Shown in pieces: positions 1,048-1,583 of a stretch of DNA of 4,623 nt (its first letter is position 1; every line of letters starts with the position of its first letter). This stretch comes from a virus. Lineage: Duplodnaviria > Heunggongvirae > Uroviricota > Caudoviricetes. Position numbers and translations under genes: made by a program. Under the pieces are notes generated by a model, which saw only the letters and a list, made by a program, of their open reading frames with translations, did not search any database and had not been told where the DNA came from. The DNA is taken from the IMG/VR virus record IMGVR_UViG_2695420565_000023; one strand, written 5' to 3'.

Positions 1048-1068
1048 GAAAAAACACAGAAAATTATT

Positions 1069-1077
1069 TGTTATAAT
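1069..1077 (+). promoter_or_regulatory. Candidate extended -10 promoter (TGtTATAAT), rightward, antisense to the 46-aa ORF
   Basis: Perfect TATAAT at 1072-1077 preceded by TG at 1069-1070; no good -35. Predicted start near 1084-1085, right at the 3' end of the minus-strand small ORF. Sequence-only prediction in an AT-rich region where such matches occur by chance. Confidence 0.3.
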
Positions 1078-1086
1078 TAATATAAC

Positions 1087-1227
1087 TTACTCAAAAAAAA
1101 GCGACGAGAAAATCAGCATCAACGAGCAATAAGCGCCAATACGTGATAACAAATGGCAGCCATATTTATCTGCAGTATAAGCAATGGACAGGATAACCAC
1201 ACCAGAAACCGTCAGCATAAAATCCAT
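1087..1227 (-). CDS. Small hydrophobic protein, 46 aa (MDFMLTVSGVVILSIAYTADKYGCHLLSRIGAYCSLMLIFSSLFFE), candidate membrane peptide; absent from the ORF track
   Basis: Hand-translated: ATG at 1227, stop TAA at 1087-1089, SD GGGGAAG 5 nt upstream. The product is dominated by hydrophobic residues, consistent with one or two transmembrane segments. Sits inside an AT-rich island (about 1050-1380). Confidence 0.35.
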   Translation of the reverse strand: MDFMLTVSGVVILSIAYTADKYGCHLLSRIGAYCSLMLIFSSLFFE

Positions 1228-1583
1228 TTGAACTTCCCCGGACAAAATCGACTCATCTAAAGATTTACAGCTCTTTTTATTATCAATATGTTAAAAGTAA
1301 AATAAACAGATGTTCAATAATACGAATACAAAAACGTGCTGAAAATCAATGAATCCATTTCTGTGTTATCAATTAATAGTGATAAACATCCGGCTTCTTC
1401 CACCATCGCACCGGACCAGCGACCATGAGGGGACAACGCCGCGCTCCGTTAACGCGGTAAACCCCGGTGTGTATCGTTTTTGATTATCCCCGCACACTCG
1501 CGCAGAGGATTCTCCCGGTCGGGCTGCGGTCTCTGTTAATGCAGGAATACGGCGACAATACCGCGCATGAATAATAAGGTCGC

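Follow-up and report, generated by a model that had tools for sequence, protein, structure and literature searches.

ECs_1538, a 46-codon hydrophobic-peptide gene in a variable slot of lambdoid Escherichia coli prophages, is probably an orphan moron gene and not a type I toxin gene

In lambdoid phages, morons presumably occupy the slot that follows Rz and precedes the packaging genes, with bor in lambda, borD-ybcV-ybcW in DLP12 and cspI-ynfN-gnsB-ydfO in Qin. To our knowledge, the type I toxin-antitoxin layout in which an antisense RNA overlaps the 3' end of the toxin gene is so far typical of Firmicutes prophages and not of E. coli; antitoxin RNAs of the txpA/RatA type are about 100-220 nt long. 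In the Bacillus prophage pairs txpA/RatA, bsrG/SR4 and yonT/SR6, the antisense RNA begins past the toxin stop codon and overlaps the 3' end, as described in PMC5848175. Antitoxin sRNAs are found at local folding minima (Fozo et al., PMC2887945). In E. coli O157 Sakai, the hokW-sokW pair of prophage Sp5 encodes HokW, which assists phage release (PMC8621323).

Against these systems we set a small ORF within a 4,623-nucleotide stretch of viral DNA (IMG/VR record IMGVR_UViG_2695420565_000023), referred to here as the window. The window is the late region of a lambdoid E. coli prophage, with the late operon running on the minus strand, and O157:H7 prophages such as Sakai Sp6 match it at 99.8-100% identity. 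The terminase genes lie past its left end in the source genomes. The features of the window are collected in Table 1. Among the neighbouring genes, the 48-aa ORF between the antirepressor-type gene and Rz is hypothetical protein WP_000539792.1 (ECs_5713) and matches PHROG 4906, a family of unknown function. The antirepressor-type gene itself is annotated as a 'phage antirepressor N-terminal domain-containing protein' and is placed between the endolysin gene and Rz, so that the usual S-R-Rz lysis cassette is split. In strain PV15-279 (NZ_AP018488.1, locus positions 5844-7501), IS1203 interrupts the lysozyme gene of an otherwise identical prophage.

Table 1. Features of the window in order of position, with strand and basis or remarks
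Feature	Position	Strand	Basis or remarks
HNH endonuclease	365-730	-	
ylcI/ynfO (DUF3950)	772-957	+	convergent neighbour of the 46-aa ORF; Pfam PF13132, NCBIfam NF041551
Variable moron cassette, 462 bp, AT-rich	927-1388	.	no homology in phage JLK-2012; flanks are conserved phage DNA
Second stable hairpin between ylcI and the 46-aa ORF	953-988		
GC-rich hairpin CAGGCTTCCCGTCTGACGGGATAGCCTG	1021-1048	.	about 40 nt past the ORF stop; fold z about -4 to -5.6
AT-rich island	about 1050-1400		
Extended -10 TGTTATAAT, proposed antisense promoter	1069-1077	+	exact match; not conserved
46-aa CDS, ECs_1538 / WP_000347013.1	1087-1227 (stop codon included)	-	ORF list, RefSeq, frame kept in three alleles
Shine-Dalgarno sequence GGGGAA	1234-1239	-	sequence; invariant in three alleles
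Conserved AT-rich upstream block, candidate sense promoters and 5' UTR	1262-1345	-	promoter scans
74-aa ORF	1584-1808	-	
Rz	1832-2299	-	Rz1 embedded, 1873-2079
48-aa hydrophobic ORF	2307-2453	-	
Antirepressor-type gene	2453-3022	-	
Lysozyme	3293-3826	-	
YdfR-like gene	3877-4221	-	
Holin	4226-4441	-	about 71 aa

The 46-aa ORF is a real, already annotated gene. A first-pass annotation had described it as an unlisted minus-strand ORF encoding a hydrophobic peptide. The ORF is present in the ORF list, with translation MDFMLTVSGVVILSIAYTADKYGCHLLSRIGAYCSLMLIFSSLFFE; its description as unlisted reflected a length cut-off alone, and RefSeq carries a CDS at identical coordinates, hypothetical protein WP_000347013.1 (ECs_1538), which belongs to prophage Sp6 of E. 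coli O157 Sakai. The surrounding AT-rich island was likewise correctly described, with a GC content of 25-42% across 1050-1400 and 45-60% in the flanks. The Shine-Dalgarno sequence, called credible at first, is GGGGAA on the minus strand, 6 nt before the ATG, and at -3.6 kcal/mol it is weak to moderate (PMC5597208 S4 Table). It is fixed in all three alleles of the gene described below, whereas non-synonymous changes occur in the spacer and among the upstream in-frame codons. An upstream TTG at 1245, which would give 52 aa, was rejected as the start on these grounds, and in-frame upstream TTG and GTG codons generally do not behave as coding. A full-text literature search by locus tag, accessions and peptide sequence returned no paper, and literature searches found none that assigns a function to the ECs_1538 peptide.

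The gene lies in a cassette that resembles a moron. By blastn, phage JLK-2012 is homologous to the window over 1-926 and again over 1389-1570, with break points at 926/1389, and its corresponding slot holds a 'TonB-like' gene on the same strand as the 46-aa ORF. The cassette is therefore a discrete insertion between conserved phage genes, replaced in JLK-2012 and of deviant GC content. As to a promoter and terminator of its own, we found conserved promoter-like elements upstream and a higher RNA level, but no canonical terminator. Several features are shared with the lambdoid morons of the Rz-to-cos slot: the position between the lysis genes and ylcI/ynfO with the packaging genes, a discrete cassette of unusual base composition that has promoter-like elements of its own, alternative cargo in related phages, and expression in the lysogen above the flanking late genes. 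The differences are that the cargo here is a 46-aa orphan without a family, that no terminator of its own was found and that the ORF, unlike lambda bor, points the same way as the late operon.

The cassette is widespread in E. coli. Of 5426 complete genomes, 734, or about one in seven, carry it at an identity of at least 97.5%, and strain SHP24 has one additional copy at 79.6%; carriers include O157, O103, O111, O145 and O104:H4 strains, and the exact protein occurs on at least 1000 contigs. It was not found in species other than E. coli. The phage backbones differ, with HNH endonuclease and HK97-type terminases in some and a different terminase pair in others. On contigs with the P0007-type allele, the ORF has no ylcI called beside it, and similarity to the window stops to the left of about 990; judged from this gene content, ylcI is not an obligate partner. 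A two-gene module of ylcI and the ORF was considered and rejected on the same observation and on the convergent orientation of the two genes. The database cluster of the peptide contains many partial members of 29-44 aa at contig ends, which indicates that draft assemblies often break inside or beside the cassette. The adjoining non-coding stretch at 1389-1570 is commoner than the cassette (965 versus 734 genomes) and occurs in many Stx1a/Stx2a phages. An old ORF, ECs1537 (1369-1587, minus strand), overlaps this conserved stretch and has been dropped by current RefSeq; with an RPKM of 3.0 it is hardly expressed.

Three alleles of the gene were recovered, with 71-89% amino acid identity: the main allele (46 aa), an SHP24 type of 45 aa from three loci (MGLMLTIAGVIVLFIACNADKYGYPLLSRIGAYCALILIFSSLFF, 71% identity to the main allele) and a P0007 type of 46 aa from three contigs (MDFMQTVSGVVILFIAYTADKYGYHLLSRIGAYCSVMLIFSSLFFD, 89% identity). 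The ORF frame is intact across all three despite 19% nucleotide divergence; the 135 shared coding bases contain no indel, whereas the flanks do. Between the main and SHP24 alleles we counted 12 changes at 32.7 synonymous sites and 13 at 102.3 non-synonymous sites, a dN/dS of 0.28 (Fisher p = 0.004), against 0.6-1.8 in the other five frames. The replacements are mostly conservative (V/I, S/A, M/I, L/F). Synonymous-site variation in homologous regions, which the first-pass annotation had named as a check for coding constraint, indicates some purifying selection. The constraint is not uniform, since only 1 of the 5 changes between the main and P0007 alleles is synonymous; the 4 non-synonymous ones include L5Q in helix 1, and dN/dS is about 1. 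Within the main allele, 6 SNP sites were seen, of which 4 fall in third codon positions, 1 converts ATG to GTG and 1 causes D20G. The family is tiny and restricted to E. coli prophages, so that selection tests have low power, and we regard the constraint on the frame as real but moderate, as judged from a small sample of sequences. By part of the cassette, identity is lowest in the 3' flank at 990-1086 (50-64%) and reaches 81-95% in the ORF and 76-97% in the 5' region. Separately, an A8 run at 1093-1100 (T8 on the coding strand) falls in the last codons of the ORF and varies in length, yielding C-terminal variants of 45 and 51 aa and a frameshifted 50-aa form; given this terminal position, slippage alters the tail only. 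A separate 54-aa form arises from loss of the stop codon.

The peptide has a GRAVY score of 1.11, with two hydrophobic stretches and a C-terminus ending ...SSLFFE. AlphaFold, run with the three-sequence alignment, predicted a helical hairpin with helices at 2-22 and 24-44 and a mean pLDDT of 72, and a published prediction places the protein in the inner membrane with 2 TM helices (PMC5597208 S9 Table). With only about 16 apolar residues apiece, the hydrophobic helices are short for membrane spans. The best conserved stretch, A-DKYG--LLSRIGAYC, takes in the loop together with the beginning of helix 2; by the positive-inside rule, the net positive charge of the conserved basic loop ADKYG..LLSR probably places it on the cytoplasmic side. 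No domain or family match to the peptide was found in Pfam, NCBIfam (E <= 1), PHROGs or PADLOC, no match among PDB sequences, and none when the AlphaFold model was compared by Foldseek with viral structure predictions. Searches of 5.8 billion and 1.84 billion proteins returned no homologue outside E. coli prophages; by phmmer, the 1.84 billion representatives gave only the peptide's own cluster and spurious hits to translated repeats. No relative emerged when one genome per species was scanned, a limited negative given that the scan used N-terminal peptide patterns only.

A helical hairpin with small-residue motifs, encoded on the late strand beside the lysis cassette, is also what class II holins and pinholins offer. 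The present peptide, at 46 aa, is much shorter than the holin of the window and matches no PHROG or Pfam holin, and for a holin role it is also relevant that the window already encodes a holin, an endolysin and Rz/Rz1.

Upstream of the gene lies the AT-rich block, which of all parts of the cassette shows the strongest conservation, with 85-95% identity between alleles; 1273-1307 is nearly invariant in the three, with a single G/C difference at 1297. On the minus strand it contains two candidate sense promoters, TTTTCA-17-TATTAT at 1345-1317 and TTTATT-16-GATAAT at 1306-1279, which we propose on the basis of their motifs and conservation. The block also includes a perfect IHF consensus at 1281-1293, WATCAANNNNTTR = TATCAATATGTTA, identical in the three alleles; this may be part of the promoter architecture or a chance match in AT-rich DNA.

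Published expression data bear directly on the gene. Hücker et al. (2017) combined strand-specific RNA-seq and Ribo-seq in uninduced Sakai and included ECs1538 among 250 short annotated controls (PMC5597208); their coordinates, 1560971-1561111, correspond to window positions 1227-1087. In LB, ECs1538 had an RNA RPKM of 57.6 and a footprint RPKM of 26.1 (ratio 0.46), with 98% of the ORF covered. In BHI the values were 32.7 and 7.3 (ratio 0.23, 81% covered), from small counts of about 7 RNA reads and 4 footprint reads (PMC5597208 S7 Table), and in BHI stress 2.1 and 0.6 (ratio 0.29, 13% covered). Among its neighbours in LB, RNA RPKM, footprint RPKM, ratio and coverage were 8.4, 8.4, 1.03 and 49% for ECs1530 (holin), 10.1, 6.7, 0.68 and 35% for ECs1536, 3.0, 2.1, 0.95 and 18% for ECs1537, and 45.6, 11.1, 0.25 and 65% for ECs1539 (ylcI) (PMC5597208). 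Without induction, the RNA of ECs1538 is thus about 6-19 times the level seen for ECs1530, ECs1536 and ECs1537, the flanking late genes, and their lower level suggests that the cassette has its own promoter.

Two 'novel genes' of the same study, XECs147 (ATA start) and XECs148 (GTG start), are on the same strand as ECs1538 and map to window positions 1083-922 and 1057-953 (both minus), just 3' of the ECs1538 stop codon. Their RNA levels are similar to that of ECs1538, and their ribosome-coverage ratios are 0.37-0.52 (PMC5597208). They are more likely to represent read-through signal in the 3' untranslated region of ECs1538 than separate genes, and their signal implies that sense transcription runs at least 160 nt past the stop codon. 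Ribosome occupancy, also raised as a check by the first-pass annotation, is evident in the published footprints over ECs1538, at low counts; because the 3' region shows similar footprint ratios and the reads are few, footprints alone are not proof of translation. We conclude that the ORF is probably translated.

These observations lead us to favour, with somewhat better than even confidence, an orphan moron gene whose product is a small inner-membrane peptide. The readings already offered for this locus included a small membrane moron protein, and it is the one to which frame conservation, the moron slot and the published expression in the lysogen point. On this view the 462-bp cassette occupies a variable slot with the lysis genes (Rz/Rz1 and the 74-aa ORF) on one side and the packaging genes (ylcI, HNH endonuclease and terminase) on the other, and carries one small gene on the late-operon strand. 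Its 46-aa product is predicted to fold as a helical hairpin and would insert in the inner membrane with the topology suggested above. In the lysogen, low-level transcription would start from a putative sigma-70-type promoter of its own in the upstream AT-rich block; during lytic growth, read-through of the late transcript should also transcribe the gene. Our best guess places the activity of the peptide in the host inner membrane, where it would either assist lysis or phage release or serve as a factor for lysogenic conversion or exclusion. That HokW aids phage release makes a lysis-related role for a small membrane peptide plausible. We do not think that the peptide is a toxin checked by a dedicated cis-antisense RNA.

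An unlikely alternative is that the ORF arose by chance in horizontally acquired AT-rich DNA and that its RNA and footprints reflect pervasive transcription. The orphan status of the peptide, with no homologue outside E. coli prophages and no domain match, would fit such an origin, as would the low read counts, the similar footprint ratio in the 3' untranslated region (PMC5597208) and the dN/dS of about 1 between the window and P0007 alleles. A chance frame is harder to reconcile with its persistence in three alleles, with purifying selection in this frame only, with a ribosome-binding sequence fixed while adjoining bases vary, with the conservative nature of the hydrophobic replacements or with footprints over nearly the whole ORF. 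The same observations argue against the first-pass option of non-coding AT-rich DNA.

We give little credence to the possibility of a new type I-like family, specific to E. coli prophages, in which this peptide would be the toxin and antisense or convergent transcription would keep its expression in check. The RNA would originate from TGTTATAAT in the main allele; the other alleles would depend on read-through from ylcI or on a divergent RNA from upstream. If so, the locus might tune lysis or abort superinfection, as hokW-sokW does. The two systems do share a small hydrophobic inner-membrane peptide, a lambdoid prophage and the same strain. However, Hok has one helix where two are predicted here, there is no sequence relation (Pfam/NCBIfam, E <= 1), and no conserved antisense promoter, structured sRNA or mok-like leader ORF was identified at this locus. 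More broadly, no Pfam or NCBIfam profile for the established type I toxins (Hok/Gef, Ldr, Ibs, TisB, ShoB, DinQ, ZorO, Fst, TxpA) matched the peptide at E <= 1.

Still less probable is a type I-like arrangement with a different antitoxin, either a divergent RNA from TTTACA-17-TATGTT (1264-1292) pairing with the 5' UTR, for which tisB/istR and zorO/orzO provide a model, or read-through from ylcI. The first version draws on the conservation of the upstream block and on the retention of this plus-strand promoter-like site in the three alleles; the second on the hairpins that follow ylcI, which lack a U-tail on either strand and would permit read-through. These hairpins, between the convergent ylcI and the ORF, lie in the only strongly structured zone (920-1099), and minus-strand RNA passes through both and overlaps the 3' end of ylcI in antisense (PMC5597208). 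Against either version, no plus-strand terminator was found across 700-1900, no plus-strand structure signal was detected across 1240-1440, and ylcI is not called beside the ORF in the P0007 allele; a sense promoter and 5' UTR account more simply for the conservation of the block.

The least probable reading is the one first proposed, in which an RNA starting at about 1084 on the plus strand from TGTTATAAT is antisense to a membrane-toxin ORF and would block its expression. In its favour, the peptide is shorter than 70 aa and hydrophobic with an aromatic/acidic C-terminus, which fits the type I toxin profile of PMC2887945 although the profile is not toxin-specific; the extended -10 sits 10 nt beyond the stop codon; and hokW-sokW is a prophage precedent in the same strain (PMC8621323). 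As biology the idea is reasonable, although this locus lends it no support. The extended -10, described at first as perfect, is indeed an exact match, but it is not strongly beyond chance. It forms part of the palindrome GTTATAATTAATATAAC (1070-1086), dinucleotide shuffling yields an exact TGNTATAAT in 6.2% of cases for the island and in 12.5% for the whole window, and the density of TANNNT hexamers in the island is 2.4 times that found elsewhere. No good -35 accompanies it, the best candidates being AAAACA and TGAAAA.

Comparison of the alleles is more telling. In the SHP24 allele TGTTATAAT is changed to TCTTATGAC, and in the P0007 allele a 10-nt deletion has taken it out; both alleles retain an intact ORF, Shine-Dalgarno sequence and upstream block, and the motif lies in the least conserved part of the cassette. 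If an RNA from TGTTATAAT were needed to restrain a toxin, alleles of these types should not persist. The hairpin and T-run at about 1259-1280, put forward as a terminator, amount to an A/U stem of five pairs whose folding energy, -1.1 kcal/mol, is equalled or bettered by 163 of 200 shuffles; a terminator scan of the plus strand likewise returned nothing there. Plus-strand RNA across 1060-1300 has z values of 0 to +1.9, no better than shuffles and worse over most of the ORF, unlike known antitoxin sRNAs. A search of Rfam at E <= 10 gave four chance-level hits only, and published work on prophage sRNAs of the Pas, HnrS and anti-sRNA families deals with other positions. Sequence analysis of the locus thus revealed neither a conserved antisense-RNA promoter nor signs of a discrete, structured and terminated RNA, whereas the Bacillus antitoxins are discrete structured RNAs with terminators. 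The ribosome footprints on the ORF during ordinary growth argue against tight repression (PMC5597208), and the available portion of the supplementary text of an Hfq cross-linking study does not name the ORF. With its promoter lost in two alleles, an unstable terminator, an unstructured RNA and no family match, the type I label is not sustained.

The RefSeq annotation and the RNA-seq and Ribo-seq values of ECs1538 were already known (PMC5597208); what is gained here is that an unsupported toxin-antitoxin label is removed and that the existing annotation and published expression data are recorded for this locus. Taken as an orphan moron gene, ECs_1538 is an ordinary, uncharacterised member of that class, widespread in pathogenic E. 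coli, and contains nothing surprising for a lambdoid prophage. Should its peptide affect membrane function, the timing of lysis or phage exclusion, Shiga-toxin-producing strains would have one more small prophage protein shaping their behaviour.
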